Positions 1 to 48,247 of a stretch of 64,000 nt of DNA are shown piece after piece. Position numbers and translations under genes: made by a program. Numbering within the stretch: the first letter of the stretch is position 1; each line of letters opens with the position of its first letter. Under the pieces are notes generated by a model. That model saw only the letters and a program-made list of their open reading frames with translations. It did no database searches and was not told the DNA's origin. Origin of the DNA: an uncultured Actinomycetota bacterium (GTDB lineage: Bacteria > Actinomycetota > Actinomycetes > Jiangellales > Jiangellaceae); the NCBI GenBank assembly GCA_963819885.1, contig CAWFXV010000003.1:4372-68371 (forward strand), given 5' to 3'.

Positions 1-3000
1 AGGCCGGAGCGCTCCCCAGTAGCGAGAGCTGGGTGCCACTCGTGATGCGGCCCGGGGCCTCATCCGATGCGGGAGTTGGTTCGCGAGGCACTCCGCGGTG
101 CCGACAGGGACCGGGACCAAGTAGCGGAACTGCTCGAGCGGGTGGTGTTCGACGAGCCCGAGGAGTCGCGCGTGGTCCTCGTGGTGGACCAGTTCGAAGA
201 GGTATGGACGGCGTGCACGGACACCGCTGAGCGCGAGTCATTCCTCGACGCTCTCGCCGAGGTGGTCGACTCGACATCCCGGTGCACTGTCGTCCTCAGC
301 GTGCGCGCCGACCACGTTGCCGGCCTCGCCGACCAGCCGGTGCTTGCGCAGGCGCTCGCCGACGCCACCGTGCTGATCGGGGCTCCGACCGCCGCCGAGG
401 TCCGTCGGGCAGTCGAGCATCCCGCCGGACTGGCTGGACTCGTGCTCGATGTCGGGCTGGCCGACGCACTCGTAGACGACGCGGGAGACGAACCTGGTTC
501 GCTGCCGCTGCTGTCGACGGCACTCACCGAGCTGTGGGATCACCGGGACGGCCGACGGCTCACGCTCGAGGCGTACGCGGAAAGCGGCGGGCTGCGCGGG
601 GCGGTGGCCCGCATCGCCGAGCGGGCGTACGGCGAACTGGACGAAGGGACCGCACGGCGGCCCGGGTGCTGCTGCTTCGGCTGGCCGGGCCGGGAGAAGG
701 CGACGCCGTGACCCGCCGGCGGGTGCCGCTCGCCGAGCTGGCCGCGCTTGCCGGACCCGCGGGTGCGCGCAGTGGTCGAGCCGCTCGCGGCCGCCCGGCT
801 GCTGACCTTCGACGCCGGTTATGTCGAGGTCGCTCACGAGGCGCTGTTCCGGGAGTGGCCACGCCTGCGGGTATGGTTGGAGGAGCATGCCGCCGCGCGG
901 GCGGTGCAGCGTCGGCTGGTCCAGGCGGCCGCCGAGTGGGATGACGGCGGCCGCGAGCCGACCGAGCTGTGGCGCGGCGGCCGGCTGGCGGCTGGGGTCG
1001 AGTTCGCGGCCGCCTACCCGGACGAGGTGACGACCGTCGAACGGGCATTCCTCGACGCGGGCCAGGCCCAAGCTCGACGCGGAACGCCGGGAGGCCGAGG
1101 AGCGAGCGGCTGCGGCGACCAAGCAGAACCGGCGGCTGCGCTGGCTGCTCGGCGGATTCGGCGTGTTCCTCGCCCTTGCTCTGGTCGCCGGTGGCCTCGC
1201 CGTAAGGGCGCAGTCGCGGGCCGAGCAAGAGTCGTCGCGGGCCGAGCAGGAGGCCCGAACGGCGACGGCTCGGGAATTGGCCGCATCCGCGGTGGTGAAC
1301 CTGAAGCCGATCCGGAGCTCGCGGTCCTACTGGCCAAACGCGCGGTCGAGCACACCCGGGAGGTCGACGGGAGCGTGCTTCCCGAGGCGGAGGAGGCGCT
1401 GCACCGGGCAGTCGTGTCGTCCCGGGTCGTGGCTGCGTACCCGGACCTCGGCGGCACGCTCGACTGGAGCTCGGACGGCTCCATGTTCGTCACCGAGGGA
1501 CCCGAAGGCACCGGCTTGGTCGACGTACGAGATCCCGATTCTGGCCGTTCGTTGCGCTCCTGGACAGGCCACGACGACGACTTGAACGACGTCTACTTCG
1601 GCCCCGACGGCACGCTCGCGACTACTGGCGACGACGGTGTCGCCGTGGCCTGGGATCCGAGGACTGGTGCGGAGGTCGGCCGGATCGAGGGAGCCGCCCG
1701 GGCGGTGTGGGGGCCGTCGCTCAGTGAGGACGGCTCGCTGTTGAGCGCCGCCTGGCAGGAGGGTGGCGCGCGGGTGATCGACCTGCGAACCGGGCGGCTC
1801 GTCCGTGAGATCGGGCCTGGACGCAGTGCGGCCGTCGACGGCGCTGAGTCCGGACGGGACGCGAATCGCTGTCGGGTGGGACGGACCGTCGGTCATGGTC
1901 GTGGACCTGCAACTCGGTCGCGAGCTGTACCAGTTCGGCGGCTTCGACTGGCGGATCGGTCGGCTCGCCTGGAGCCCCGACGGCCGCTGGATCGCGGCAG
2001 TCGGGGACGATTGATCCGCGGGTGTGGGACGCCAAGACCGGAGCACTGCGGGCCGTGCTGCGCGGGCACACGGTCGTTCACCCTGTTCGGATCGACTGGA
2101 GTGCGGACTCGGCCATGATCGCGACCGGAAGTTGGACGGAACGGCCAGGATCTGGGAGTTCACCGAGGAGGGCGTGCAGGAGGTGCTGTCGCTGTCGGCG
2201 GCGGGGACGCACGAGGGCGTGGTCGGGGTCGCGTTCTCGCCGGACGGTCGGCGTCTCATGGTCGGTAACGAGGCGATAAGTGCCGTCACGATCTTCGATA
2301 TCGACCTGACGGGAAACGCCGAATGGGCAAACGTCCCGGCGCCGTCAGCGTTCACCGGCGTTGACTTCTTCCCGGACGGGCAGCGATTCGTCGCGCAGGC
2401 GGAGCGGAAAGGCGAGTGTCGGCGGCCATCTGGGATTCGGATACCGGCCGTTTCCTCGGCAGCACAGGAACCCACGGCCCGTCCGGCGACCCCGACGGCT
2501 GGCACCCATGCCTACCACGTCGACGTCAGCCCGGACGGTGGGCTGATCGCGACTGCCAGCGACGCGTCCGTGAAGATCTGGGATGCAGCGACCATGCGGA
2601 GATCTATTGGGTACTGTCGACAGCGCGATCGGTGAAGCCGACATCGACTGGAGCCCAGATGGTTCGTTGCTCGCGGTCTCCGGATCGGAAGCGACGGGGA
2701 TCACCACGATCTTTGACCGGTCGGGCCGCGCCGTCGGGCGAGGTCAGCGAAGAGGACGATTTCTATTCGGTGTCCACGGCCTTCAGCCCTGATGGCGCCT
2801 GGCTGGCCACGGGCCGAGACGGTGGCCCGGCGCCCTCGAGGCGGATGTACGGGGTGACCATCTGGGACTGGCGCACCGGTGAAGTGGTGTCGAGCGTCGG
2901 TGGAAGCCTGGCGGACGGCCTGGCCTTCGCCCCCGATGGCTCCGTACTTGCGACAGCCGACTACGGCCCGGCCCGCATCTGGGATGCCGCGGACCGGCCA

Positions 3001-3342
3001 GCTACTGGCTACCCTGACTGGCCACACCGGCGGTGTTAGGGACGTCGGCATTCAGCCCCGATGGCGCCACAGTTGCGACGGCGGGCCAGGACGGAACCGT
3101 TCGTCTCTGGGACGCCGAGTCCGGCGATGCAGCGCCTCGTCCTCCGCGGGCACATCGGTGTCGCTCATGCCGTGCAGTTCAGCCCCGATGGGACGAAGTT
3201 GGCGTCGACTGGCACGGATGGCGTCGTTAGCGTGTGGGCGCTCGACCTCGACGACCTGCTGCGCATCGCCGGTGAGAACGTGACCGAGACCTCACATCCG
3301 GCCGAGTGCCGGCAATACCTGCACGTCGATAACTGCTCCTGA
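1..3342 (+). pseudogene. STAND-type NTPase / WD40-repeat protein, 5'-partial, disrupted by many frameshifts and stops
   Basis: ORF fragments in all three + frames (67..711, 282..944, 748..2118, 1163..1585, 1805..2014, 2022..2279, 2024..2635, 2416..3039, 2583..2792, 2879..3283, 3033..3230, 3061..3342) join into one protein. It comprises an NTPase-associated region (VVLVVDQFEE, LPLLSTALTELW), a TM/coiled-coil linker (FLALALVAGGLAVRAQSRAEQE) and at least 8 WD40 blades (SPDG..., GHT..V..V.FSPDG, VR(I/L)WD). At least 10 frame changes are needed. The gene ends at the stop at 3340-3342. Confidence 0.8.
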
Positions 3343-3481
3343 CCGCATCACCGGCCGCGAGACCGGCCGATGACTGGGCCGTGACCGGCGCGACTCCTCC
3401 ATGACTGCGGCGTTGGCGTGGCGAGCCGAACCTCGAGGTGACGGCTCCGGATAGGCCGGGGCCTCGGACCTGGAGGTCACC

Positions 3482-3730
3482 ATGAACCGCATCCAGCGCA
3501 TCGCCGCGGCGGCTGCCATCAGTGCCGCCGTGATCGCACCCGCCACCTTGGTCGCCGCACTGGCTGTTAGCCCAGCCGCGGCGCGACCCGACCCAGGAGG
3601 CCCTATTCCCGTCCGGTTCTCCATCTACGAGCAGAACTGCCCGCTCAGGCGCATCGACAGCCAAGTGGTCCGGTGCGACCACCTCACCGGTGCCGGCGTC
3701 CAAGCACCGATCGGGGTACCCGAGTACTGA
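3482..3730 (+). CDS. small secreted protein (signal peptide), hypothetical
   Basis: 82 aa. N-terminal signal peptide MNRIQRIAAAAAISAAVIAPATLVAALAVSPAAA. GGAGG-like RBS at 3471-3476. Paralog of the 4158 gene (same signal peptide and ARPDPG motif). Confidence 0.6.
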   Translation: MNRIQRIAAAAAISAAVIAPATLVAALAVSPAAARPDPGGPIPVRFSIYEQNCPLRRIDSQVVRCDHLTGAGVQAPIGVPEY

Positions 3731-3882
3731 CCGGGCCGCCGTGGTGGGCCATTATGGGCGCGAGCTTCCGTTCGCCGGCAGCAGGGCCAGGCCGCATTGC
3801 CGTCTCGCTGAGCGGCCTGGCGTCGACGGCAGGCGTAACATCGAGCGATTTCCCGGCTGCAACCAAAGCGGATTTAGGTGCG

Positions 3883-3990
3883 GGATGGAACGGGTGGTCA
3901 AACTGGGCGCCGTCCACCCGTGCCTTGTGTGAGTTGCCGCGGGTCGGAATGCCATGGCCTTCCTGATCACCGAGGCCATGTGCATCAGGC
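3883..3990 (-). pseudogene. C-terminal remnant of a flavodoxin-like FMN reductase (paralog of 4602..5327)
   Basis: Translates to ...GIPTRGNSHKARVDGAQFDHPFHP, versus ...GGIPAYGNSRKAWDDGARFDHPFLSDGT at the C-terminus of the intact neighbour. The DNA aligns by eye to 4616..4725. No upstream coding part remains. Confidence 0.7.
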
Positions 3991-4157: not shown

Positions 4158-4545
4158 ATGAACCGAATCCAGCGCATCACCGCAGCGGCCGCTATCGGCG
4201 CCGCGGTGTTCGCGCCGGCACCGCGGCTTCGCGTTCGCCAGGCCGGACCCAGGACAGGCGCCGCAAACGTCGAGCATCTCGAAGGCGCAAATCGAGCACG
4301 AAGAGCGGCTCCAGGCGCCGCAAACGTCGAGCATCTCGAAGGCGCAAATCGAGCACGACGAGCGGCTCCAGATGCTCGACCAGCGGTCGGACGCTGTCGA
4401 TGGTCAGTCCGCTAGCTCGACCGGAGCCGACACCGCGGGCTTCCCGTGGGAGACCGTCGGGCTGGCTGCTCTCGCCGGTGCGGCAATTGCTGCGGGTGGC
4501 GTGGCAGTTGTTCGCCGTCTCAACAACGAACCAAGTCGCGCCTGA
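4158..4545 (+). pseudogene. secreted, C-terminally membrane-anchored repeat protein; frameshift just after the signal peptide
   Basis: The signal peptide MNRIQRITAAAAIGAAVFAPA is in frame 0. From about 4220 the high-GC3 frame is +1: AFAFARPDPGQAPQTSSISKAQIEHEERLQ(x2)...GFPWETVGLAALAGAAIAAGGVAVVRRLNNEPSRA*. The ARPDPG motif realigns with the 3482 paralog only after the shift. Confidence 0.65.
4257..4370. repeat. 57-bp tandem duplication (2 units, 56/57 identical)
   Basis: Units 4257..4313 and 4314..4370 differ at one base (gaagag vs gacgag). 57 bp equals 19 codons, in frame with the +1 reading frame (APQTSSISKAQIEH(E/D)ERLQ). Confidence 0.95.
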
Positions 4546-4601: not shown

Positions 4602-5327
4602 TCATGTCCCGTCGGATAAGAACGGGTGGTCGAACCGGGCGCCGTCGTCCCACGCCTTTCGCGAGTTGCCGTAGGCCGGGATACCGCCGGCTCTTTTGAG
4701 CATCGAGGCGAGGTGCATGAGGTTCCAGGTCATGAACACGGTGTTGCGCTGGGTGAACTCGTTCTCCGTGCCGCCGGAGCCTTCGTCCAAGTACGACGGC
4801 CCTGGGCCGGCCTCGCCGATCCACCCGGCGTCGGCTTGGGGCGGGATGACGCAGCCGAGATGCTGCAGCGAGTAGAGGACGTTCATGGCGACGTGTTTGA
4901 TGCCGTCCTCGTTGCCGGTGACGATGACACCGCCGACCTTGCCGTAGTACGCATACTGGCCGGCGTCGTTCAGCTCGCCGGAGTTGGAGTAGAGCCGCTC
5001 GATCACCCGAGTGCACATGCTGGACTTGTCACCCAGCCAGATCGGCGTCCCGATCACCAGGATGTCGGCGGCCTTGACGGTCTGGTAGATCTCCGGCCAG
5101 TCGTCGGTATCGAAACCGTGCTCCTTCATGTCGGGTTGGACGCCGGGAACGAGGTCGTGGTCGACGGCCCGGATCTCGTCGACGTGCACGCCGTGCTTGC
5201 GCATGATCGACGTGCTGACGCTCATCAGGCCGGCGGTGTTGGACACCTCCGGAGACCGCTTGAGCGTGCAGTTGATGTAGAGGGCGCGCAGGTGGGAGAA
5301 GTCATGGGTCCGTTCGGTCACGGGCAC
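4602..5327 (-). CDS. flavodoxin-like NAD(P)H-dependent FMN reductase family protein
   Basis: 241 aa intact ORF. Contains LYINCTLKRSP...ADILVIGTPIWLGD...GGVIVTGNEDG, typical of the FMN_red/flavodoxin_2 fold. Confidence 0.85.
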   Translation of the reverse strand: MPVTERTHDFSHLRALYINCTLKRSPEVSNTAGLMSVSTSIMRKHGVHVDEIRAVDHDLVPGVQPDMKEHGFDTDDWPEIYQTVKAADILVIGTPIWLGDKSSMCTRVIERLYSNSGELNDAGQYAYYGKVGGVIVTGNEDGIKHVAMNVLYSLQHLGCVIPPQADAGWIGEAGPGPSYLDEGSGGTENEFTQRNTVFMTWNLMHLASMLKRAGGIPAYGNSRKAWDDGARFDHPFLSDGT

Positions 5328-6799: not shown

Positions 6800-6931
6800 A
6801 TGTCCGACCTCCCGACGGCGGCCGAACTGCCGACGATCGACGCTGAGGCGTTCACCGCGTTCGAAGCGGCGGGGTGGGACCGGAAGGCTGCGAATGATGG
6901 CCGGTTGTTTGGTCAGTTCACCGCGAGGTGA
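6800..6931 (+). pseudogene. possible N-terminal fragment of a SAM-dependent methyltransferase
   Basis: The 43-codon ORF MSDLPTAAELPTIDAEAFTAFEAAGWDRKAANDGRLFGQFTAR* resembles the pre-Rossmann N-terminus of class I methyltransferases. No methyltransferase fold follows in any frame. Confidence 0.3.
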
Positions 6932-7015
6932 CGTGCTCGAGTTGCCAGCCTCGGCCAAGCTGGCCCACGGTACGAAGCCGCACGTTGAACGCCCCGCCGA
7001 GCCAGGAGCGCAGGC

Positions 7016-7420
7016 ATGAGCGTTTTCACCGAAGCCGAGATCGAGTATCTGAACTCGCAGCGGCTCGGCCGGATGGCAACGGTGGGCGCGGACGGTCAGC
7101 CGCACATCATCCCGGTGACGTTCGTCTACAACGCGGCCGAGGATGCAGTCGATATCGGCGGTCTTCGGTTCGGCGCGGGCAAGAAATGGCGGGACGCCCA
7201 GCAGAATCCACGGGTAACGTTCCTTGTCGACGACTCAACAGGCCGGTCGGCCCGGGCGCTCGAGGTGCGGGCGATTGTCGAACTGCACGACAGTGGCGGC
7301 GAGACGATCAATCCCAGGTTTCCCAAATTCGCGCCGCAGTTCTTCCGCCTTCGTCCGCACCGTGTCGTCTCCTGGGGCCTGGAGGGCTCCGGATACCAGG
7401 TGAACGCGCGCTCGGTCTGA
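7016..7420 (+). CDS. PPOX-class (pyridoxamine 5'-phosphate oxidase-like) F420/FMN-dependent protein
   Basis: 134 aa. Contains EIEYLNSQRLGRMATVGADGQPHIIPVTFVYN...NPRVTFLVDD, typical of the PPOX split-barrel family. Confidence 0.8.
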   Translation: MSVFTEAEIEYLNSQRLGRMATVGADGQPHIIPVTFVYNAAEDAVDIGGLRFGAGKKWRDAQQNPRVTFLVDDSTGRSARALEVRAIVELHDSGGETINPRFPKFAPQFFRLRPHRVVSWGLEGSGYQVNARSV

Positions 7421-7605: not shown

Positions 7606-7983
7606 GTGCGCGGTATTCATCGTGCGGAGCCGAGCGCCGATGAACGCGCCGGACCGGTCGCTCTAGGTAGAGAGTCGTTTGAGCGGCAGGCTTGGCGGCT
7701 GGCCTACGACCAGCTGTCGGCGGCCGACGCCGTCCAGTTGGAGCCCGAGGACCTCGAGCGGCTCGCAATAACTGCCCATCTGCTCGGTCGGGAGGCCGAA
7801 AGGGCCGATCTCTTGAGTCGGGCCTACCGCGCCTACCGTGACCGCGGTGCTCTCGGACGGGCAGCCCGCTGTGCCTTCTAGCTGGCTTTCGCGTTGCTGC
7901 TCGGAGGGGAAACAGCCCGTGGCAGTGGCTGGCTGGCGCGCGCCGACAAACTGTTGGCGAAGCAGGGCGACTGTGTTGAACGC
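7606..7983 (+). pseudogene. N-terminal fragment of a LuxR-family regulator with an in-frame amber stop
   Basis: GRESFERQAWRLAYDQLSAADAVQLEPEDLERLAITAHLLGRE...[36 protein letters not shown] at 7879-7881 sits where the family has Trp (TGG). Homology stops at ...DCVER (about 7983), and no HTH domain follows. Confidence 0.6.
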
Positions 7984-7987
7984 GTCG

Positions 7988-8252
7988 AACGTGATCTGGA
8001 GTACCGGCTACGAGCCGAACTTCGGGTGGATCGACCTGCCTGTCTTCGACGACGCCGGTTGGCCGAGGCACGACCGGGGAGTTGTGGAAGCCGAACCAGG
8101 CCCTGTACTTCGTCGGTCTACCGTTCCTGTTCGCGCTGACGTCGTCTCTCGTGGGCGGCGTAGGACGAGACGCCGAGTACATCGCAACGCACATCGCCTT
8201 CCACGCATCAGGCGGCGCGACCGAACCTGATGCAGTCACCCGGGCGGGGTGA
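7988..8252 (+). pseudogene. C-terminal fragment of a flavin-dependent monooxygenase / NAD(P)-binding oxidoreductase (CzcO-like), frameshifted
   Basis: [38 protein letters not shown], then a frame change near 8098-8104 into [32 protein letters not shown]...*. It directly abuts the LuxR fragment. Confidence 0.6.
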
Positions 8253-13701: not shown

Positions 13702-14067
13702 GTGGCGCCCCAGCAGGACGCCCTCCTGTTCGCGGGCCTCAAGGGTCAGCCGGTCCGTCGGAGCAACTTCGGCAAGGCCGTGGACTGGACCAAGACCGTC
13801 GCCGACCTCGGTCATCCGGGCCTGCACTTCCACGATCTCCGTCACACCGGCAACGTCCTGGCGGCACAAACTCCAGGAGCCACGCTGCGGGATCTGATGG
13901 CGCGGATGGGACATGACAGCATGCGGGCTGCCCTGATCTACCAGCACCTCACGAGGGACGCCGATCGCCACATCGCCGACGCGATCGCAGCTCAGATCGC
14001 ACGCGACACGACCGGATCTGGGACCGAGAAGGAGGACGACGAGGGGACGAACCGGGGCGGCGGATAG
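13702..14067 (+). pseudogene. tyrosine recombinase/integrase, C-terminal catalytic fragment only
   Basis: ...LLFAGLKGQPVRRSNF...GLHFHDLRHTGNVLAAQTPGATLRDLMARMGHDSMRAALIYQH carries the HxLRH and Y catalytic boxes. The frame is closed by a TAG about 40 nt upstream. No N-terminal SAM-like or core-binding domain was recognised in any frame. Confidence 0.75.
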
Positions 14068-14980: not shown

Positions 14981-15067
14981 CGCCAGATCAACTCCCGTCG
15001 GTTCGGCCTGCGATGAGTTGGCGTGCCAACGCGGTCCTCATGAAGGAAACGTCGAAGAGGCATGAGC

Positions 15068-15232
15068 ATGAGGAAGTTGGTCGTCACCGAGAACATCACG
15101 CTGGACGGCGTCATCGACGCGAGCGAGGGGTGGTTCGCACCCGCCGGCGACGAGGAGGTCGATCAGTCCGACCTCAACGAGACGCTCCGTGAGCAGGCCG
15201 CCGCCGCCGATGCGGTGCTGTTCGGGCGGGCA
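15068..15232 (+). pseudogene. 5' fragment of a RibD_C/DHFR-family gene
   Basis: MRKLVVTENITLDGVIDASEGWFAPAGDEEVDQSDLNETLREQAAAADAVLFGR matches the family N-terminus. Homology is then lost and the SnoaL-like gene follows. Confidence 0.6.
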
Positions 15233-21019: not shown

Positions 21020-22681
21020 ATGACCGTTGGACCGCGCACCGTCACCGCGCCGCGAGGGACGACCCTGCACGCCAAGGGCTGGCCGCAGGAGGCGGCGCTG
21101 CGGATGCTGCAGAACAACCTCGACCCGGAGGTGGCCGAACACCCCGAGGATCTGGTGGTCTACGGCGGCACCGGCCGGGCTGCGCGCGACTGGCCCAGCT
21201 TCGAGGCATTGGTGCGCACGCTCACCACGCTGGAGAACGACGAGACGATGCTCGTGCAATCTGGCCGGCCCGTCGGCGTCATGCGCACTCATGAATGGGC
21301 GCCGCGAGTCCTGATCGCCAACTCGAACCTGGTGGGCGACTGGGCGACTTGGGAGGAGTTCCGGCGGCTGGAGTCCCTTGGCCTGACGATGTACGGCCAG
21401 ATGACGGCCGGATCGTGGATCTACATCGGCACCCAGGGGATTCTCCAGGGGACGTACGAGACGTTCGCTGCTGCCGCCGCGAAGCGGTTCGGCGGCTCGT
21501 TGGCCGGCACGATCACGTTGACCGCCGGCCTGGGCGGAATGGGCGGGGCGCAGCCGCTCGCCGTGACGATGAACGACGGCGTCGCGATCGTCGTCGAATG
21601 CGATCCGTCCCGGATCAGCCGTCGCATCGAGCACCGCTACCTCGACGTCGAGGCCGAATCGGTGGACGAGGCGTTGCGGCTTGCGTACGAGGCTCGCGAT
21701 GCACGGCGGGCGCTGTCGATCGGTGTGCTCGGCAACGCTGCGGCCATCGTCCCGGACCTGCTGGCTCGCTCGGCGGAGATCGACGTCGTTACCGATCAGA
21801 CGTCCGCACACGACCCGCTGGCCTATCTTCCGCTGGGCGTGGAGTTCGAGGACTGGGTGGCCGAGCGGGATAAGGACCCTGCCGGCTTCACGACTCGGGC
21901 CCGGGAGTCCATGGCGGCGCACGTCGAAGCGATGGTGGGCTTCCAGGACGCCGGCGCCGAGGTGTTCGACTACGGCAACTCGATCCGGGGCGAAGCGCAG
22001 CTGGCCGGGTATGAGCGGGCATTCGACTTTCCGGGGTTCGTCCCTGCGTACATCCGGCCGCTGTTCTGTGAAGGCAAAGGCCCGTTCCGCTGGGTGGTGC
22101 TCTCCGGCGATCCGGCGGACATCACAGCGACCGATGCGGCCGTTCTCGAGCTGTTCCCGGAGAACGAGTCGCTCGCTCGATGGATTCGGCTCGCCGGCGA
22201 GCGGGTGCACTTCCAGGGTCTTCCCGCGCGGATCTGCTGGCTCGGCTACGGCGAACGCGACCAGGCGGGCGCACGGTTCAACGACATGGTCGCCTCTGGG
22301 GCGCTGCAGGCTCCGGTCGTGATCGGGCGCGACCACCTCGACTGCGGCTCTGTTGCATCGCCGTACCGGGAGACCGAGGCCATGGCCGACGGCTCGGACG
22401 CGATCGCCGACTGGCCGCTGCTCAACGCGCTGGTCAACACCGCGTCTGGTGCCACCTGGGTTTCGATCCACCACGGGGGTGGTGTCGGCATCGGGCGGTC
22501 GATCCACGCCGGGCAAGTGACGGTGGCGGACGGCACTCCGCTCGCCGGTGAGAAGATCGCGCGGGTGCTGACCAACGATCCGGGCATGGGCGTGATCCGG
22601 CACGTCGACGCGGGATACGAGCAGGCGCTGGACGTCGCCGACCGTCTCGGCGTACGGGTGCCGATGCGGGAAGGGCCGTGA
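21020..22681 (+). CDS. hutU: urocanate hydratase
   Basis: 553 aa from ATG 21020 (GAGGAG RBS). [41 protein letters not shown]. Confidence 0.95.
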
Positions 22682-24094
22682 GCATGCCACTCGACGTCGC
22701 ACCGCTGCAGCGCAGGTTCGGCGGCGAACTGATCTTGCCTGACGACGCGGCCTACGACCCGGCCCGGCGGGTGTGGAACGCCATGGTCGACAAGCGGCCG
22801 GCCGTCATCGCCCGCTGCACCTCGCCGGAGGACGTGGCGGCCGCGATTCGGTTCGCGCGGGAGAACGAATTGGAAATCGGCGTGCGGTGCGGCGGCCACA
22901 GCGTGACCGGTCAGGCAGTGCCAGACGGCGGGTTGATGGTGGACCTCACCGGGATGGCCGCTGCCCGGGTGGAACCGGACCGACGGCGGGCCTGGGTGCA
23001 GGGCGGCGCGTTGCTCGGCGCGCTGGACCGGGCCAGCCAGCAGTTCGACCTCGCCACGCCGTCGGGCAACGTTTCACACACCGGTGTCGGAGGCCTGACG
23101 CTCGGCGGAGGTATGGGATGGCTGGCCAGGCAGTTCGGGTTGTCGTGCGACAACGCCAAGTCGTTCCAGCTGGTCACGGCGGACGGTGACGTCCTGCACG
23201 TGGACGACGAGGAGAACCGCGAGCTCTGCTGGGGCCTGCGCGGCGGTGGCGGCAACTTCGGCGTCGTCACCGAGTTCGAGTTCCAGCTGTATCCAATGGG
23301 TTCGCCCGTACTATCCGTGGACCTCTCCTACGATCCAGAGGATGCGCTGCCAGCCTTGCAGGGGTGGCGTGACCTCATCGCCGATGCTCCTCGGCAAGCC
23401 ACGTTCACGGCGTGGGTCGGCACCTCCGGCGACTGGCCGTTCCTACCACCCGAGCTCCACAACCGGCCACTCGCCAGGGTCGGGTACGTCTGGGTCGGCG
23501 ATCTGGAGATGGGCCGTCAGATTGCTTTCCCAGTTTCGCGCGCTCGCGGCCCCGCTGCACGAAGCCGTCGACGAGTTGTCCTACCTCGAACTACAGAGCA
23601 TCGCCGACGACACCGGCGCTTTGCCCACACGGCGCTACTGGAAAGGGCACCTGCTGCCCGAATTGCCCGACGAGGCACTCGAGGTCTTCCTGGCCCGAGG
23701 AGCCGATGGGACCGCACCCGCGGATGGCGGCGTGCTGCCGTACGCCGGCTTCCAGACCTACGGCGGTGCAATTGCCGACGTAGACGGCTCGACGTCCGCG
23801 TTCAGCCACCGCGAAACGGTGGTGGAGTTCGTGACGGCGGCGCGCTGGTCCGACCCCTCGGAGGATGACGCCCGAATGGCTGCAGCGCGCCGGTACGGGG
23901 AAGCGATGGAATCTTTTGCGAGCGGTGTCTACGTCAACGCCCTGTCCGACGACGGGCAAAGCGGGCTGCGCCGGGCCTACCCGCCCGCGACGTTGGACCG
24001 CCTCACGGCATTGAAGGATCGTTACGACCCGGACAACGCCTTCCACCTGAACCACAACATTCTCCCAAGCGGCACCACTGCACCCCTCCTCTGA
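22678..24094 (+). pseudogene. FAD-binding (FAD_binding_4 + BBE) oxidoreductase with one frameshift
   Basis: The N-terminal part (22678 frame: VRCGGHSVTG, GGGMGWLARQFGL, GGGGNFGVVTEFEF...VGDLEMGRQ) continues in the +1 frame (23186 ORF: LLSQFRALAAPLHEAVDELSYLELQ...YVNALSDD...RYDPDNAFHLNHNI). The switch is at about 23521. Confidence 0.8.
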
Positions 24095-27780: not shown

Positions 27781-28180
27781 CGTGGTCTCCTTCGGCCAGT
27801 ATGCCGATGCGGCCGCGTCGCCGTCGCGGCCCCGCGGAGCGGTGTGACCGGTGACTTTCGGGTTACCCGGCTGTCGGCTGTCGCCGATGCGCTCGATGAT
27901 CCGGTCTGGACCCGACGGCGGCCCGTCGGTGGGTCGTCGACCCAGCACCGGGCAGTACAGGGCCCGGTCGATGACGCGTATCCGCTTGGACTGGCATAGT
28001 CAGGTAGACCGGACCTAGCTATCTACCACGCGCCCGGCGGTGCCGGTGTATGCCGCTGCACCCAACCGTGGCCGTGCCCTTCGTCACATCCCCGGTCTCG
28101 TCCACCACCATCACCGCGTGCGGCGCTTCGGATTCTCAGTTGATGCAAGCGTCGCTCGGGGTGTGATTGGTGGTGCGAGG

Positions 28181-29564
28181 ATGTCCAGCAAGTCGCTGGG
28201 CGGGGAGGACTCATTGGGGGGCATCGTTGGCCCAGCAGGGCAAGTGCCGCTGACCCGGGAGTTGGTCGCAAAATCGCGCTCGCAGGCTCCGCTGCTTGCG
28301 TCTGCGTGGACGTGTCTAGTTGCGTTGGTGGTTGTCGTCGCCGTTGTGGTCATGGTTGTACCGGTATCGGCATGCACTGCGTCGTCTCCGTGTGAACCGG
28401 CTTGGCTCGATGCCGTGTTTACCGGGTTGTGGGTGGCGAGCGCGGTGGCGATGTTTATCGACCGGTGGACCGGTGTCGGGCTGGGTGCCGCCGCCGTGGT
28501 CCTTGCCGTACCGCAGCAAATGGCGGATCCGCTGCCGTGGTGGGCATTCGCGTTAATTCCCGGGTATGTGGGTGTCCTCGTGGCCGTCGCCATCGTTCGG
28601 CAACGGCACCGGTCGGCCGTTGCCGCCGAGCTGGCGTCGGGGGCAACCTCAACGACCCGGAACCTGCTAACGCGAGGTCGCGGCAGTTGGCCATCGGCCA
28701 TTACATCCGGACTCGGGTTGCCGGTCGCTGTGGGCCTGATGGCGGCGGCGGTCGCCGCGGCCGGCTGGGGCTGGCATGTTCAAAGCGTGGAGGCTGACCA
28801 GGAAGCCGCCGCGAAGGTGGTCGAGGGCACGATCATGGCTTTCGACGATGATGTCGCCGTTCAAGTCGCGGTGCCGGCGCTCGATTCCACGGTCACCGTG
28901 GGCGTGTTCCATACCGCGGACTACCCGCTTGGGCACACCTTGCCGTTCTGGCTGCTGCCCGATGGGGACGTGCGCCCGGTCGCGGAGCCATACGACGCCT
29001 CCCTCTGGGGCGTTCTCGCCGCGCTGCTTGCAGGTCTTTCCATAGCCGCCGGTGCCCGGACCGTGCGTCGCCGACGCGGCCAGCTCGCCCTGTTTGACCG
29101 CCCGCAGCCTGTTTTTGCCGCGCGGGCAAGGCGCCATCCAAATCATGCGGAGATCTATTCCGTGCCGGTGGTGGGTCAAATAGACCATCCGGTCCTCGAG
29201 ATCGCATTGCGCTGGGTCAACCTCGACGACCCCCGCGAACCGCCCGCACCACCGCGCACCTGGGCGACGTCTGGTGACCGGGCAGAAAACAGTTCCGGCG
29301 ATGGAGGCGGGCCTGGACTGGTCGACGTCGAGCTGATCGGGATCCCGGCGGACGGCCACTGGTGCGCTGTCCGCCATGTCGGGACCCGAAGCCTTGGCAT
29401 ACCAACAGGTGTGGCGGCGGGTCTTGAACCTGGCCGACGTGCCTCCCGGAGTGGCCGTCTTGATCGAAGGGACCTCGGATCCGGTGGGCTGGCTAGAGCC
29501 GGGCCCTTGCTCATCGCGGAGGACCTTCTGCTCCTGCTCACCGATGACACCAGCGGCCGGTTGA
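28181..29564 (+). pseudogene. polytopic membrane protein, hypothetical; apparent frame switch near 29370
   Basis: Frame 2 carries 5-6 TM helices and a soluble middle part up to ...IPADGHWCAVRH. From 29376 to about 29505, GC3 favours frame 0 (MSGPEALAYQQVWRRVLNLADVPPGVAVLIEGTSDPVGWLEPGP). The 738-aa ORF in the track (28040..30256) therefore looks chimeric. Confidence 0.5.
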
Positions 29565-30256
29565 AAACTCTCGACGCGAAGGTCGCCATCCTGCTGGCGG
29601 GCGCGAACCTCGTCGAACTCGCCCTGATGGGACGAGTGGGCATCTCACGTGAGGTCAAGCCGATCCGGTTCCTGGGCATCAACCGGACGGTGGACCGGCT
29701 CGTCGTTCGTGATCCCTCCCCAACCGGTGATGCAGTCCTCGACGCGGCCGTGCAGATCGCCATCAGGGGCGAGGCCGGGCGGCCGCGCCGCGCCGCGGTG
29801 CTCCATCCGGAGAGCAGAACGTCGTGGGTGATCCGGCTGTCGGGCGAGAACCTGCAGCAGACGCTGTACGAGCGGTTTTTCAGCCGCGGGATGGTCCGCC
29901 ACGAGCGGCGCAGAACCCTGATGTACAACTTCGCGTTGACAAAGGAAGACCGGTGGCCGGTTCAGGATTCCCGCCGCCAAGTGGAGGTGCGCCATCGGGT
30001 GATCCAGGCGCTTGTGGCGCAGACGACTCCGGACACGCGAAGCGCCGCGATGATCGCCATCCTGCACACGATTCGGCACGAGCCCAAGATCGTCGACCCT
30101 CGACATTACGGCATGTCCAAGAGCCAACTCATCGCGCGTGGCGAGCAGATCGCCAACAGCAACTGGGCACCCGAGGCTGTTAGCGACTCGATCGACACAA
30201 TAATCGCCGCGACCGGGACGGTCGCCGCGTCCGCGGGGGAGGGCGGCGGCGGTTGA
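29507..30256 (+). CDS. GPP34 (GOLPH3/VPS74-like) family protein
   Basis: (M)LIAEDLLLLLTDDTSGRLK...AGANLVELALMGRV... is the family's typical N-terminus. A TTG start at 29507 is proposed. About 249 aa, the normal family size. Confidence 0.7.
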   Translation: MLIAEDLLLLLTDDTSGRLKTLDAKVAILLAGANLVELALMGRVGISREVKPIRFLGINRTVDRLVVRDPSPTGDAVLDAAVQIAIRGEAGRPRRAAVLHPESRTSWVIRLSGENLQQTLYERFFSRGMVRHERRRTLMYNFALTKEDRWPVQDSRRQVEVRHRVIQALVAQTTPDTRSAAMIAILHTIRHEPKIVDPRHYGMSKSQLIARGEQIANSNWAPEAVSDSIDTIIAATGTVAASAGEGGGG

Positions 30257-34150: not shown

Positions 34151-34158
34151 ATACCCGG

Positions 34159-34778: not shown

Positions 34779-34801
34779 GTGTCCAGCCTTACGGTAGGGC
34801 C

Positions 34802-35999
34802 GTGTCGACGACCCTCGTGGGCAACATCGGGCTGCTCCTCACCGGTTCGACCGATTACGGTGACGGATCACCGCTCGGTGAGATGGCCGATGCTGCGCTG
34901 GTGTTCGGCGACGACGGCCGGGTGGCGTGGGTCGGAGCAAACCGGCGTGCCCCGGCTGCCGACTCTTGGGTCGACGCCGGGGGACGATGTGTGCTGCCGG
35001 GTTTCGTCGACAGCCATTCCCATCTGGTCTTCGCGGGCGACCGAGCGGCGGAGTTCGACGCCCGGATGGCCGGGCGCCGGTACGAAGCGGGCGGTATCCG
35101 GACGACTGTTGCCGCCACACGCGCGGCCTCGGACGAGGACGCTCGCCGACAACCTGGCCCGGCTCGTCGCAGAGATGCGCCGGCAAGGCACGACGACCGT
35201 GGAGATCAAGAGCGGCTACGGATTGACGGTTCGGGACGAGGCCCGCGCGTTGGCGCTGGCGAAGTCTCACGACGGACGAGACGACCTACCTGGGCGCGCA
35301 CGTCGTGCCCGTCAGAGTATGCCGACGATACAGGCGGCGTACGTCAAGCTCGTCACCGGGGAGATGCTCGATGCCTGCGCGCCGCACGCCCGCTGGGTCG
35401 ACGTCTTCTGCGAGCGAGGGCGCCTTCGATGCTGATGCCGCGCGCGCGGTCCTCACCGCAGGGATGGAGCCGAGGTCTGCAGGCGCGAGTCCACGCCAAC
35501 CAGCTCGGGGAGGGCCCGGGCGTGCAGCTGGCCTGCGAGCTCGGTGCCGCCAGCGCGGACCACTGCACGTTTCTGACCGATGCGGACGTCGACGCGTTGG
35601 CGGCGTCGGGAACTGTCGTCGACGCTGCTACCCGGCGTCGAGTTCTCGACCCGATCTCCGTACCCCGACGCCCGCCGACTGCTCGGCGCCGGGGTCACGG
35701 TCGCGCTCGCGACCGACTGCAATCCCGGCTCGTGCTTCACCTCGTCGATGCCGTTCTGCATCGCGTTGGCAGTTCGCGAGATGCGGATGACCCCGGCCGA
35801 GGCCGTGTGGTCAGCGACCGTCGGTGGTGCGGCCGCGCTACGCCGAGCCGACGTCGGGCGCCTGGTCCCCGGTGCGCGAGCCGACTTTGTCGTTCTCGAC
35901 GCACCGTCGTATGTGCACCTGGCGTACCGCCCTGGCGTCCCGTTGGTCACCGAGACCCGGCAGGGCGGTCGACCCTCGAGCACACCCCGTCTTCGCTGA
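34802..35999 (+). pseudogene. hutI: imidazolonepropionase, at least 7 frameshifts
   Basis: Homology hops between frames. The segments are: [12 protein letters not shown]...[19 protein letters not shown]...TRAASDED (frame 2); [28 protein letters not shown] (0); [13 protein letters not shown] (1); SEYADDTGG (2); [10 protein letters not shown]...WVDVFCERG (0); [14 protein letters not shown] (1); [34 protein letters not shown] (2); LLPGVEFS...[10 protein letters not shown]...[10 protein letters not shown] (0). Confidence 0.88.
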
Positions 36000-36175: not shown

Positions 36176-36871
36176 TCACCGTTCGGGTCGGATGTTCTGG
36201 TTGAGATGGAAGACGTTGTCCGGGTCGTAACGCCGTTTGAGCATGGCGAGACGGGCGAGCTTGCCGGCCGGGTATGCCCGGCGCACACCGGTTTCCCCCT
36301 CGTCGGCGAGCACGTTGACGTAGACGCCGCTCGCGAAAGAGCTCGACGGCGGCGCCGAACCGGCGGGCCGCCCCGACGCGCTGGTCGTCCTCGGCCGGGT
36401 CGGTCCAGCCGGTGAGCGGCCGACGAACTCCACCAACGTGCTGCGGTGGCTGAACGCGCTGTACGTTATCGAAGACGTTGCGGCGATCGCGGCGCCATAA
36501 GCCTTGCAGGGATCCGTTCGGTAGTCGCATCCGGTCTGCGCCAGGATCGGAGTTCCCCCTAGGGACAAGAATGCGTCGATGAGCGGCGTCAGAGAGTTCG
36601 GACAGGAAGTGACCCTTGAAATACCGTCGCAGACGCGGCCTGGGCGGTGCGCGGACTCGTCGTCCATGGTCTGCAGCCGCAGATAGCAGACAACTCCTCC
36701 AGCCCGCTCGGCCAGCGGCGGGCCGAGGCTGGCGACAATCGGCAGCATCTGGCGGCCTTCATCTGGATCGCCCACCCAGACGAAGCCCAGGCTCGCCAGC
36801 GTCCGGTTCCGCAGCTGTGGCTGCATGACCGCCACGCAGCGGGCGGAGCGGGTGACGTCGAGCAAAGTCAA
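36176..36871 (-). pseudogene. C-terminal remnant of a BBE/FAD-linked oxidase, truncated and frameshifted
   Basis: ...[17 protein letters not shown]...[11 protein letters not shown]...[10 protein letters not shown]...[49 protein letters not shown] parallels the C-terminal half of the 22678..24094 gene. No FAD-binding N-terminal half is present. Confidence 0.7.
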
Positions 36872-36899
36872 TGGCGGCTGATCATCTGAACTCCGTCCA

Positions 36900-37475: not shown

Positions 37476-37637
37476 CCATCGCTCCTTTCGTCAGACGCGC
37501 CGGGCGCTGCGCCGGCGTCTCCTCTGCTCTGCAGGTTCTCCCACATCGGTGAACTGCTCGATACATCGTCACGGATCTGATGTCAGCGGGTCTTGAACGA
37601 TTGCTCACCGGTGCGGGTCCGCAAGGTGCGGCGACGG

Positions 37638-38381: not shown

Positions 38382-38391
38382 CGATATCGCC

Positions 38392-38422
38392 TTGACCTTG
38401 ACGCAACGTCAAGATTTAGCCT
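38392..38422 (+). promoter_or_regulatory. MerR-type promoter: -35 TTGACC, 19-bp spacer containing a perfect dyad, -10 TAGCCT
   Basis: TTGACC (38392..38397), 19-nt spacer (38398..38416), TAGCCT (38417..38422). The dyad CTTGACG-CAA-CGTCAAG spans 38397..38413. The ATG of the L11 paralog lies 9 nt after the -10 box, which implies a leaderless or near-leaderless mRNA. Confidence 0.6.
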
Positions 38423-38431
38423 ACCAGAATC

Positions 38432-38860
38432 ATGTCGCCCACCCAGCGGGTTGCCGCCGTCATCACCATCCAGCTCGAGGCCGGGCAGGCCAACATGGCC
38501 AAGGTGGGCCAGGCCCTCGGCCCGCACGGGATCAACCTGGTCGAGGTCGTCCGCAGCTATGACGCAGCCACCGCGAACCAGCGCGGGGAGATCGTCCCAG
38601 CGGTCGTCACCATTGACGAGGACCGGTCGTTCTCCCTCGTCACCAAGACCCCACCAACCTCTGCGTTGCTCCGCCAGGCAGCCGGACTCACCAAAGGCGC
38701 CCCACGCCCCAACGGTGTCCCGGTCGCCACGTTGACCCGAGCCCAGGTCCGTGAGGTTGCCCGGCGCAAGCTGCCCGATCTGAACACCGATGACCTGGAT
38801 GCGGCTGAGAAGACCGTCGCCGGCACGGCTCGTTCCATGGGAATCGCGATCGCCGGCTGA
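38432..38860 (+). CDS. ribosomal protein L11 (uL11) paralog with a divergent, proline-less N-terminal domain
   Basis: 142 aa, colinear with bacterial L11. C-terminal rRNA-binding domain motifs are retained (DRSFSLVTKTPPTSALL, DLDAAEKTVAGTARSMGIAI). The N-terminal domain reads IQLEAGQANMAKVGQALGPHGINL where canonical L11 has AG.ANP.PP.GPALGQ.G.N. The Lys-rich N-terminus is replaced by MSPTQR. The gene is not in a nusG-rplK-rplA context. Confidence 0.85.
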   Translation: MSPTQRVAAVITIQLEAGQANMAKVGQALGPHGINLVEVVRSYDAATANQRGEIVPAVVTIDEDRSFSLVTKTPPTSALLRQAAGLTKGAPRPNGVPVATLTRAQVREVARRKLPDLNTDDLDAAEKTVAGTARSMGIAIAG

Positions 38861-39121
38861 GCGCGACGTCGACTTCGTTGGGGAATCGCGGCCGTGAGTC
38901 AGGGCCGCCTGCGGAGCGGCGATACCTCGGATCGGTCCTGGTTTGGATGGTTTGTGGAACCGCTCGCCGTGCCAATTCAAACACCCGTGCCCTAGATGCG
39001 GGTCAAGTCAGGCATATTGACACGCAGTGATCACCGCGGTACGAAGCATCGGGGCGACGTCGACCTAGCCGGGGCCGGCGAGTCGCACCGAACAATCGGC
39101 AGGCGCGAGGGGTGGGTGTCG

Positions 39122-41718
39122 ATGACACGCAGGTTCGTGGCAATGCTGGCCGTTCTTCTTGCCCTCCCGATCTCGATGGTGGCGGTTTCGCCCGCCCAGG
39201 CGGATGTGGTGCCGCCGTGGTGCGGCGATCCGGTTCCCGACGCGGCGGAGAACCTCCCCGACGGCACTGACCCCAGCGATCCGCCCGGCAGCTTCCCCCA
39301 CATCCCGTACTACGCCATCCGCTGCACCCTCGAGGACATCGTGGCGTCGAGCCAGGGACGGATGAGCCTGGAGGTCATGGGTCAGTCGGCGCTGGGCCGT
39401 GACCTCTTCCTCGTCACCGTCAACGCGCTGGACACCGTGCAGCAGCGGAAGGACTTCCAGGCCTGGCAGCAGGTGCGGAAGGTCGCGCTGACCGACCCGG
39501 TTCGCGGCCAGGAACTGCTCCAGTCCTACGGGGACAACGTGAAGGTCCCGCTCTACATCCAGGGCGCCATCCACGGCAACGAGTACGAAGGGGTCGAGGC
39601 GATCTTCGAGACGCTGGAGAGACTTGCCACGACGCCGTACGGGGCGGACCCCGAGGTCGACGCCGTCCTGGACCACACGGTCCTGCTGTTCAACGTGATC
39701 CAGAACCCGGACGGCAGGGTCGCCGGTACCCGCGCCAACGGCAACGGCTTCGACCTCAACCGCGACTTCATGACGCAGTCGCAGACCGAGACCCGCGCCT
39801 CGGTGGCGGTAATGCAGAAATGGCTGCCGCCGGAGGTCCTCGACCTGCACGGCTACGTCACGCCCACGCTCATCGAGGCGACGACGAAGCCGCACAACCC
39901 GAGCATCGACTACGACCTGTGGCTCAAGTGGAACCAGCCGCGCATCGACGCGAACGAGGCCGCCCTGGCGGCGCTCAACTTCGACGTCACCCGGCCGATC
40001 AACGACTGGTGCTCCGACGGGAGCCAGCCCCCGCCAGGCGGGATCTGCCCGGACGGTCAGCCGCCGGGCCCAGCCGTCGCCGAGGGCTGGGACGACTGGG
40101 GCCCGTTCTACACGCCGATGTACGCCCAGCACGTAGGGCTGAACGGGTCGACGGTGGAGATGTGCACGCGAGACACCGACTGCGCCGTCCCCGGTACGAC
40201 GCCGGCCGCCCTGGGCCGGCTGGGGTCGCGGATCATCCAGGAGACCGTGGTGTGGTCGAGCCTGCTCTTCGATCTCGAGAACCGGAACGAGCTCCTCTTC
40301 GACGAGGTCGAGCGCTACCGCCGCGGCGTCGCGAACGAGCCGCGGCCGCCGTGCTGTGAGCCTCCGTTCGACGTCGACAACAACTGGATGGCGGAGTTCC
40401 CCACCGCCTACATCGTGCCGATGGGTAGCGGACAGCGCAGCGAGCCCGAGGCGAACCGGCTGGTCGACTGGCTGCTCGCCAACGGCATCCTGGTCGACCA
40501 GCTCAAGCAGGCCTACACCTTCGACGGCGTGACCTACCCGGCCGGCTCGTACGTCGTCCTCATGAACCAGGCCCACCGTGGGCTCGCCGACACGGCCCTC
40601 GGCATCGGCGCCGACATCTCCGAGGACATCAGCATCCTCTACGCACCGCCGGCGGCGTGGAGCCACGGCTACCTCTGGGGTGCCGACGTGGTCCGGGTTC
40701 CGGCATGGGCACGACGTTCGCGCCGCAGACCAACCGGATCCTCAAGGCGAGCCACCTGCTCGGTGGCGTGGAGCCAGGCCCAGCTACCGGCTACGCCCTG
40801 AAGATCGACTCGCCGACGGCGGTGCGCACACTCAACGCGCTCATGGACGAGGGGCTCACGCTCGAGCTGGCGCTGGCGCCGTTCACCTCCGCCGGCGGCG
40901 GCACGCTGCCGACCGGGAGCGCGATCTTCGCCGCCGACGCGGCGACCAAGGTCGGCTCGCCTCGATCGGCCGCGCGAACGACGTGTGGTTCCACCGCGTT
41001 GGTACGTCGGCACCGCCGACCGAGCCGATCGACCGCATGCCGCGCGATCATGGTGCTGACCGGTGCCCTCAACCAGGACGTGTGGTCGCTGCAGAACCTG
41101 GGCTTCACGCCGGAGTTCAAGTCGACGGCCCAGCTGAACTCCGCACCCCAGGACCCGCTGCCGGACTTCGACGTCATCTGGAACACCGGCGGCTTGGCCG
41201 ACTGCGGCACAACCTCGCCACGGCGCGGGCACGCCTGACGTCCTTCTTCGCAGCCGGCGGCGGCTACATCGGTGCTGGAGCGAACGGTGCCAACTTCCTA
41301 ACCGGCGGCGGCCTCGTGACCGGCCTGACGGCCGCCGCTGTGCCCAGCCGGCACCGGACGTCAGCGGCATCGTCTACTGGGACAACGTCGGCGGCGCGGC
41401 AAGCCCGATCACCGGCGCGAGTCCCGGCCCGGGACACGGCGATCATGGACCCGCCCACCTGGTTCACCGCGGTTCCCGGCGACGATGAGCGTCGACGGGC
41501 GGTTCCCGACGGCGATCTCGCCGACGTCCTCGGATCGGGCTTGTGGCCGGATGGACGCCCAGTCCGCCTCGGCGCCCGGCTCGGCTGTCATCGCGCACGG
41601 GACGACGACCGCTGGAACGGCGCGGGCAACGGTCTTCGCGATGAACCCGCTGTATCGAGCCGACCCCGAGCGGGAGTGGTCGATGGCCGGCCTGGCAGCC
41701 TACTGGGCCGACCAGTGA
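39122..41718 (+). pseudogene. secreted M14-family metallocarboxypeptidase; the C-terminal third is riddled with frameshifts
   Basis: Signal peptide MTRRFVAMLAVLLALPISMVAVSPAQA. The M14 catalytic region is intact (IQGAIHGNEYEG, NPDGR, NRDF, LDLHGY). After about 40690 the homology continues only by hopping among the 40657, 40578 and 41485 frames, with at least 6 shifts. It ends ...TVFAMNPLYRADPEREWSMAGLAAYWADQ*. Confidence 0.75.
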
Positions 41719-41894
41719 AATCCTCACCCGGTTTCCTCCCAAAGGAACCCAGCGGCTAGGGCGCCGTGCGCGGGTTTCCGCGGCGCCAGCCCGCGCGAGG
41801 GGACGCAGGAAATAGCGCGCTCGCCGCCGCTGACCTGCAACCTCGCGGCCGAGATGTTCGCCAACCCGCGGAAGTCGCGGCCTAAACGAACATC

Positions 41895-45342: not shown

Positions 45343-45346
<4 letters not shown>

Positions 45347-47187: not shown

Positions 47188-47189
47188 CG

Positions 47190-47591
47190 ATGGACGCCGG
47201 CTCCCGCTTCGTCGTCACCGTGACCGGGGCCGCCCGTCGAGTCCGCGACGACGAGCCGCTCTACGTCATCTCGGTGGCGGCCGAGATGGCCGGCATGCAT
47301 CCGCAGACGCTGCGACAGTACGACCGGCTGGGCCTGGTTTCTCCCGGCCGAGCCGGTGGGGGCAGCCGCAGGTACTCCCGACGCGATATCGAGCTGTTGC
47401 GCGAGGTTCAGCGCCTGTCCCAAGAAGAGGGCGTCAACCTCGCTGGCATCAAGCGCATCCTCGAGCTCGAGGCCGAGCTCGACGCTGTCCGGGAGCGGTT
47501 GGCAGAGCTCAGCGCCGAGTTCTCCTGGCTCGCCACCAAGGTTGCTCCGCACACCCTGGCCCGCTGGCAGCCCCCGCGCATGCTCACCTGA
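47190..47591 (+). CDS. hspR: heat-shock transcriptional repressor HspR (MerR family)
   Basis: LYVISVAAEMAGMHPQTLRQYDRLGLVSPGR..GGSRRYSRRDIELLREVQRL. Last gene of the dnaK operon. Cognate HAIR sites are present. Confidence 0.92.
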   Translation: MDAGSRFVVTVTGAARRVRDDEPLYVISVAAEMAGMHPQTLRQYDRLGLVSPGRAGGGSRRYSRRDIELLREVQRLSQEEGVNLAGIKRILELEAELDAVRERLAELSAEFSWLATKVAPHTLARWQPPRMLT

Positions 47592-47668
47592 TCTCCGATG
47601 GGTTCGGCCACGATAGAGTTCCTGCCCTAGCCCGCTGGCATCCGTCAGGAGCTTTGGAAGACCAGTGA

Positions 47669-48247
47669 CCGACGACTCCTGTCGGTACCGGATTGCCAAC
47701 CGCGGGCAACACCCACGAGGTGGCTCAACAGGTGGCGCCGGATTGCCGGATCGTCTACGTCGACAACGACCCGGTCGTGCTCGCCCATGCCCGGGCATTG
47801 CTCACCGGCGCCAATCCGGGCACGACCGACTACATCGAAGTCGACGTGCGCGAGCCGGGTGAGATCGTCCGGGCCGCCGCGCGAACGCTGGACTTCAATC
47901 GGCCCACAGCGTTGATGCTGCTGGGGATACTCGGGCACATCGAGGACCGGGATGAAGCCGTGTCAATCGTGAACCGGCTGGTCGAAGCGCTTTCTCCGGG
48001 CAGCTACTTGGTAATCGCCGACGGTGCCGACGTCGATGAGGCGGGCAACGAGGCGCAGCGTCGCTACAACGAAGCTGCGCCGGTTCCCTACCACCTGCGC
48101 AGGCCTGACAAGATCGCCGCGTTCTTCGGCGAACTGGATCTGCTGGCGCCCGGCGTCGTACCCGTCTCGCAGTGGCGGCCCGATCCGAACTCTGCTGATG
48201 AGCCGGCTGACACCGCAGTATTCGGCGCGGTGGCGCGCAAGCCCTGA
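47669..48247 (+). pseudogene. SAM-dependent methyltransferase (DUF574 type), 5'-truncated
   Basis: Opens directly after a TGA at 47666. It reads ..VGTGLPTAGNTHEVAQQVAPDCRIVYVDNDPVVLAHARALL..., which is the Rossmann motif I onward. By my recollection of the family, the ~90 aa normally preceding GTGLPT are absent, and there is no ATG/GTG start before the motif. Confidence 0.6.

Follow-up and report, generated by a model that had tools for sequence, protein, structure and literature searches.

Frameshifted accessory genes in a Jiangellaceae metagenome-assembled genome: probable consensus errors beside genuine deletion remnants

When broken accessory genes stand beside intact housekeeping genes in a bacterial genome, do they record ongoing decay of that genome or the way in which it was assembled? 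The question is raised by a 64,000-nucleotide stretch (the window, positions 4372-68371 of contig C3) of G000, a metagenome-assembled genome (MAG) of the family Jiangellaceae that measures 3.63 Mb in 32 contigs and has a GC content of 67.7%; its dnaK neighbourhood groups it with MAGs of uncultured soil members of that family. A first-pass annotation, made from the letters of the window alone, had counted about 14 disrupted or truncated genes in its first 48 kb and had read them as ongoing decay of accessory functions rather than as assembly error. Taken at face value, the window would describe an actinomycete of the soil whose genome has begun to erode and which can no longer complete its histidine-utilisation pathway. 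Comparison with related genomes gives a divided answer. With a probability of roughly three in four, the frameshifts in hutI, in the 3′ third of an M14 peptidase gene, in a BBE-type oxidase gene, in a STAND-WD40 gene and in a small secreted paralogue are consensus errors of the assembly, and the deletion-type remnants of the same stretch are separate and real. The pattern is most likely a warning about data quality rather than a sign of genome decay.

The evidence throughout is sequence comparison with relatives: every listed lesion was compared, and the genes were named by Pfam. Four genomes of the same genus were used, namely G003 (20 contigs, 87-95% nucleotide identity to the window and syntenic with it across nearly the whole stretch), G002 (270 contigs, a k141 assembly), G005 and G001. 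Small insertions and deletions (indels) were polarised against at least three intact orthologues. A GC3 frame plot proved too noisy at 68% GC for mapping frameshifts and was dropped; a codon log-likelihood caller was substituted for it. The genes of the window that carry the small indels are the following.

34802..35999, plus strand: hutI (imidazolonepropionase), with +1 insertions at 35140, 35270, 35312, 35330, 35417, 35466 and 35619.
38996..41717, plus strand: M14 zinc-carboxypeptidase gene (853 amino acids in G002), with nine frame-breaking indels at 40705-41551.
22678..24094, plus strand: FAD/BBE oxidase gene, interrupted by one +1 T at 23517, which occurs in the window alone; G002 has an intact copy.
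1..3342, plus strand: STAND NTPase-WD40 gene, which begins about 0.7-1.6 kb upstream of the window, with several frame changes.
4158..4545, plus strand: gene of a small secreted/anchored protein paralogue whose frame changes directly after the signal peptide.

In hutI, where the first-pass annotation had noticed at least seven shifts, there are exactly seven indels. All of them are +1 insertions, and none is found in five orthologues (those of G003, G002 and G005 and of two metagenome contigs). Not one of the seven lies in a homopolymer, and not one duplicates a neighbouring base. They are confined to the central 480 bp of the 1190-bp gene (P = 0.02), and seven hits in 1.2 kb have a Poisson probability of about 1e-13 under a uniform error rate. 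Seven independent neutral indels would be expected to come together with tens of extra, mostly non-synonymous substitutions, and hutI has none. Once the extra bases are removed, its ratio of non-synonymous to synonymous substitution rates (dN/dS) is 0.13 against G003, compared with 0.125 for the intact pair G003-G002 and 0.07-0.30 for intact genes nearby. Lineage-specific substitutions amount to 34 in the hutI of the window and to 54, 66 and 84 in three intact orthologues. A dead hutI would further be biologically awkward beside intact hutH, hutU and hutF, which are useless without it.

The M14 peptidase gene had been credited with at least six shifts, and nine frame-breaking indels are found. 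They follow one another within 850 bp as +2, -1, +1, +5, +2, +1, +1, +2 and +1 (eight insertions and one deletion), and the first 1.7 kb of the gene contains none, a patchiness that is unlikely to arise by chance (P = 9e-4 for nine indels within 850 of the 2562 bp). The dN/dS values obtained for the gene are 0.13 and 0.24; within the patch they are 0.24-0.26, and the intact pair G002-G008 reaches 0.27 over the same codons. Nucleotide identity to G002 falls from 94.4% to 83.6% precisely where the patch starts (~40700), which suggests a recombinant or mixed-allele 3′ part and would fit an allelic mosaic. The oxidase gene has the single shift that had been placed at about 23521, now assigned to the +1 T at 23517, and its dN/dS against G003 is 0.16. 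As for the secreted paralogue, its orthologue in G003 is also frameshifted, at another site.

In the STAND-WD40 gene, a tblastn search with an intact homologue of 1,525 amino acids revealed at least five frame changes, four of which fall inside the window (at about 52, 1812-1835, 2593-2610 and 2726-2737), and the alignment with G003 contains 75 indels, 71 of them not multiples of 3. Each of the four genus genomes in question (G000, G001, G003 and G005) has a broken copy of the gene, with the breaks at differing positions of the reference: near 351-366, 567, 1148-1155, 1398 and 1436 in G000, near 232, 593, 803 and 1289 in G005, near 300, 815, 943 and 1420 in G001, and at others in G003. Between species, dN/dS over the N-terminal 800 codons is 0.16-0.22. 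That a gene under constraint throughout the divergence of the genus should have died recently, and four times over, is much less likely than four error-prone consensuses of a gene that is polymorphic, paralogous and repeat-containing.

How do these observations bear on genuine ongoing decay, in which accessory genes under relaxed selection gather frameshifts and deletions and housekeeping genes stay intact? Mycobacterium leprae and recently host-restricted symbionts have undergone reductive evolution with mass pseudogenisation, and the window resembles them in its broken accessory genes beside an intact core and in a genome that is small for the family, since genomes of the genus measure 3.1-3.6 Mb and those of one large-genome genus of the family (g26) 5.6-7.9 Mb. 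Decay is also favoured by the existence of real deletion remnants, by the accessory functions on which the lesions of the window fall and by the breakage of STAND in four of four genomes. A crude coverage of the genome by open reading frames (ORFs) of about 77%, with 77% in positions 1-48.3 kb of the window, points the same way; it was dropped as an index of decay because it is uncalibrated, the same caller yielding 73-95% on isolate loci.

The differences from reduction of the M. leprae type concern selection, the spectrum of the indels and their distribution. With the indels ignored, hutI, M14, the BBE oxidase and STAND all display purifying selection; neither raised dN/dS nor a surplus of substitutions was found in hutI or M14, the dN/dS of broken genes equals that of intact orthologues, and hutI has even fewer lineage-specific substitutions than its intact counterparts. 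In bacterial pseudogenes, deletions prevail and single-base indels are mostly due to slippage. The spectrum of the window is the opposite of this: the polarised small indels comprise 17 insertions and one deletion (P = 7e-5), and in 11 of the 13 single-base insertions the added base is no copy of a neighbour, as is the case for 15 of 21 insertions in an 800-kb sample of the genome. The dense patches of indels within genes are non-random. Inactivating lesions shared among related lineages were not found, those of hutI being restricted to the window and the STAND breaks differing between species. Expansion of insertion sequences (IS) or other repeats, which had been proposed as a check on decay, was sought by self-BLAST of G000, and the load is low: the search returned essentially contig-end overlaps and one 1.5-kb two-copy repeat.

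A central argument of the first-pass annotation for decay was that random indel errors would not have spared long conserved genes. The intactness on which it was built is real. The genes hutH, hutU, hutF, dnaK and dnaJ and those of the CCG/4Fe-4S reductase and MMPL are uninterrupted relative to their counterparts, and so is clpB over the parts that the relatives cover; ptsI and EIIC were left out of this comparison. The argument itself fails on genes elsewhere in G000. When 800 kb of G003 was set against the entire G000, 33 of 445 orthologue pairs were split across frames in one genome or the other. Several long G003 ORFs that served as references turned out to be frame chimeras themselves, and the raw proportion is therefore not assignable to G000 alone. 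Events were assigned to either genome by codon-usage continuity, and the polarised ones number at least 16 in G000, of which 13 are insertions, and at least 27 in G003, of which 20 are insertions, a pooled insertion bias of 33/43 (P = 3e-4). The codon-score method flagged as broken a phosphoglycerate kinase gene that is actually intact, which indicated that it over-calls at gene ends; for this reason, reliance was placed only on genes confirmed with three relatives.

Among the confirmed genes, the sole aconitase gene of G000 (contig C24, near 173823) is split at amino acids 328-332 by a +1 A, its two halves each being 97% identical to G003, and it forms one open frame of 964-989 amino acids in each of G002, G003 and G005. 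A second aconitase paralogue (67% identical) occurs in G003 on contig C13 and was not found in G000, so that the frameshifted gene is the only copy there. The gene of ribosomal protein uL4 (rplD; contig C32, near 221653) is likewise split in G000, while the copies of G002, G003 and G005 are whole. MetH has at least three +1 insertions in G000, and a LuxR-type regulator of 1015 amino acids has four, at 96% nucleotide identity. Lesions are thus not restricted to dispensable genes, and the breakage of the sole aconitase gene and of rplD in one genome is hard to reconcile with decay. Further, at a background of 0.03-0.05 isolated events per kb, 30 kb of genes would escape altogether with a probability of 0.22-0.44, and conserved genes free of lesions in the window are no surprise if indel errors are at work. 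Decay is, on balance, unlikely as the source of the frameshifts.

The structure of the assembly itself points to consensus errors. Self-comparison of G000 showed that its contig ends overlap one another for 2-17 kb, with 97-99.5% identity between the copies. Such pairs include C19/C31 (17.2 kb; C19:1-17221 = C31:17220-1), C9/C19 (12.4 kb), C3/C18, which involves the contig of the window (11.1 kb; C3:90439-101539 = C18:1-11106), and C15/C20 (8.8 kb). About 86 kb is present twice as haplotigs, and it follows that the bin merges at least two strains and that its size is slightly inflated. Across 85.7 kb of overlap there are 974 substitutions and 73 one-base indels, and at least 14 indels break the coding frame in one of the copies. 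Independent assemblies of one region disagree by indels, and the number of these is much too high for real strains that differ by about 1%. Overlapping contig ends are not expected of de Bruijn short-read assembly; they indicate an overlap-type assembly of at least two co-existing strains, probably from long reads. A complete 16S gene lies within a 166-kb contig of G000.

The second contiguous MAG is affected in the same manner. In G003, at least seven shifts form a patch in the operon of the liv branched-chain amino-acid ABC transporter (G003:C6:15509-19540), which is intact in G000, and a +1 insertion splits the MMPL gene of G003 at the equivalent of position 33521 of the window; the window, G002 and G005 each have an uninterrupted MMPL gene. 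No frame lesions were found in G002 or G005 over the ~20 kb of conserved genes compared. Indel errors in long-read assemblies, and protein-length tests of the IDEEL type, were reportedly the subject of work by Watson and Warr in 2019. The likeness to such errors lies in single-base indels that fragment conserved genes, essential ones included, and that are uneven along the genome, in two contiguous MAGs that are hit with a short-read relative that is spared, and in broken genes that lack a signature of decay. Published work holds that Nanopore bins of low coverage need polishing, since indels in the consensus break up the gene calls (Sereika et al. 2022, PMC9262707). The published Nanopore consensus errors are mainly homopolymer-associated (PMC9262707), whereas the indels described here lie mostly outside homopolymers, are biased towards insertion and are densely patched, in a MAG whose platform we infer.

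The following course of events would account for the frameshifts. An overlap-type, probably long-read assembler would have built G000 from two or more strains that diverge by about 0.5-2%. Genes carried by some members of the population only, and highly polymorphic ones, would receive lower or mixed coverage and a worse consensus; with low coverage or mixed alleles, which are typical of accessory and polymorphic genes, the consensus may have retained spurious extra bases. The result would be patches of +1 insertions in genes that are probably intact in the organism. The link of the indels to coverage or to strain mixing is, again, one that we infer.

Several observations weigh against attributing the frameshifts to the consensus. 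The indels of the window are mostly outside homopolymers, so that the classical Nanopore signature of homopolymer placement is missing from them. The lesions of the window strike accessory genes about six times more often than they occur in the conserved 800-kb sample, as real relaxed selection would predict too. No short-read assembly of the same species with intact copies of these genes was found. A metagenome scan for a contig of the same species with an intact hutI returned best matches at the genus level only, with 84-85% amino acid identity, and none of the short-read genomes of the genus carries an intact STAND gene. STAND-WD40 has an in-frame TGA at 709-711, and the corrected reading of M14 retains two stops. 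Finally, the support for consensus errors is comparative, and the platform is presumed.

Another reading is a mixture, in which the isolated single-base shifts are errors and at least one heavily hit gene is a true recent pseudogene, the likeliest being STAND-WD40 and perhaps the 3′ part of M14. STAND/NLR-like sensors are known for fast turnover, the STAND gene differs from G003 by dozens of indels in addition to its TGA, and in M14 the drop in identity at the start of the indels is joined by the two remaining stops. Set against this are the low between-species dN/dS of STAND, the fact that its breaks fall at different points in four genomes, a dN/dS in the M14 patch that equals that of the intact pair, and an insertion-biased spectrum that is the same as in essential genes. 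A mixture is regarded as quite unlikely as a general account, though a minority of the genes with many hits, STAND first among them, may yet be real pseudogenes.

The clustering of the insertions within a few hundred bp, their failure to duplicate neighbouring bases and the missing excess of substitutions would also suit a mutational burst, that is, one error-prone repair or translesion-synthesis event that wrote untemplated +1 clusters into a few loci. Such a burst would need to have hit essential genes too and to have occurred independently in G003; we know of no bacterial process of clustered untemplated +1 insertion of this kind, and an artefact is the simpler account of the same facts. 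The burst is extremely improbable. Hardly less so is the broader notion that the clusters are real and reflect localised insertion mutagenesis (for example, an error-prone repair patch) in this Jiangellaceae genus, which we consider very unlikely; if true, it would mean that such mutagenesis inactivates genes in bursts without the usual build-up of substitutions. Under the preferred reading of consensus errors, an important consequence is that gene calls, pathway reconstructions and pseudogene counts from G000 and G003 are unreliable without polishing, and that findings resting on a 'dead' hutI or STAND need the same artefact caveat.

The deletion-type remnants are a different matter. About half of the listed lesions are, by the alignments with relatives, genuine deletion or truncation remnants in a structurally variable stretch.

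3888..3953, minus strand: FMN-reductase C-terminal remnant of 22 amino acids, found by tblastn with 73% identity to the C-terminus of the 4602-5327 product.
6800..7016, plus strand: methyltransferase stub that keeps amino acids 1-43 and 256-296 of the 296-amino-acid G003 orthologue, with an internal deletion of ~0.65 kb.
7657..7983, plus strand: LuxR/MalT-type regulator stub (amino acids 7-116 of 543), at the left edge of a 2.26-kb deletion.
7973..8252, plus strand: flavin-monooxygenase stub (amino acids 282-373 of 373), at the right edge of the same 2.26-kb deletion.
13702..14067, plus strand: tyrosine-integrase C-terminal fragment of 121 amino acids, matching positions 92-169 of the 172-position Phage_integrase profile.
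15062..15232, plus strand: RibD_C stub that keeps amino acids 1-57 of 191, with a deletion of ~350 bp.
36176..36871, minus strand: BBE-type oxidase remnant, in which the C-terminal BBE domain alone survives.
47681..48247, plus strand: Methyltransf_19 (DUF574) gene that keeps amino acids 83-270 of 270, a deletion of ~230 bp having taken the first 82 codons.

The paralogue of the FMN-reductase remnant at 4602-5327 is intact and belongs to Pfam FMN_red. The junction of the 2.26-kb deletion has a microhomology of ~8 bp, and the DNA lost from G000 is still present in G001 and G003; the monooxygenase stub has, in addition, a +1 C at 8103. The integrase fragment adjoins a tRNA-Gly(CCC) gene at 14156-14229, as is found in degraded integrative elements at tRNA genes. 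The surroundings of the remnants differ from G003 by insertions or replacements as well (27821-30347, 34086-34801 and 35969-41897). The window crosses an accessory, structurally variable part of the MAG in which what is left of an integrative element sits at tRNA-Gly, and real deletions there have left the methyltransferase, LuxR and monooxygenase, RibD_C, Methyltransf_19, integrase, BBE and FMN-reductase remnants. The likeness to flexible islands and degraded integrative elements at tRNA genes consists of an integrase fragment beside tRNA-Gly(CCC), truncated cargo genes, deletions bounded by microhomology and structural differences from the nearest genome. The difference is that such islands account for the deletion-type remnants only and not for the patches of frameshifts. 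The remnants are ordinary features of a normal flexible region.

Of the lesions counted in the first-pass annotation, 13 of 14 are found at or near the positions given there, and only the one near 29370 comes down to a weak codon signal. When the loci were compared with orthologous ones, as it had suggested, the deletion remnants were confirmed, and the multiply frameshifted genes bear no trace of relaxed selection. The conclusion of ongoing decay rather than assembly error stands to the extent that the remnants are real; for the frameshifts it is the less likely reading in view of the same selection data, of the bias towards insertion and of haplotigs that differ by indels.

In the island at tRNA-Gly, an intact RibD_C gene at 12646-13529 matches contigs of G001 (C41) and G002 (C142, C120) with 99-100% identity, genomes that elsewhere are just 76-87% identical to the window. 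Either the island has recently spread by horizontal transfer inside the genus, or sequence was carried over between bins.

Several candidate shifts were rejected. Apparent frameshifts at 6735, 8513 and 26125 became start-site or intergenic differences when a third genome was added, and their dismissal also removes one apparent frameshift of G003. Programmed frameshifting was rejected because seven or nine shifts within one gene, without a shared motif, are no recoding signal. The lesion near 29370 belongs to the following feature.

28040..30256, plus strand: ORF of 738 amino acids with a membrane-protein part and a GPP34 domain (amino acids 492-720), named by Pfam.

A frame change near 29370-29500 is possible in this ORF, where the codon signal is weak. 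A family-wide DNA search found no homologue of the membrane part (28040-29400) in 57 other genomes of the family. The whole membrane-protein/GPP34 block (27821-30347) is absent from G003, in which its flanks are contiguous, and the GPP34 part has paralogues of ~75% identity elsewhere in G000 and G003. Between hutH and hutU, a 52-bp insertion relative to G003 (20931-20982) carries GACACGA...TCGTGTC as an inverted repeat and may be either a terminator or a small hairpin element. Outside the window, the principal sigma-factor gene of G000 (C24:210118-211805) contains a 14-bp tandem duplication (CACGCGCTGGCCAA) relative to G003 in its Lys/Ala-rich N-terminal region, which shifts the frame upstream of the conserved regions.

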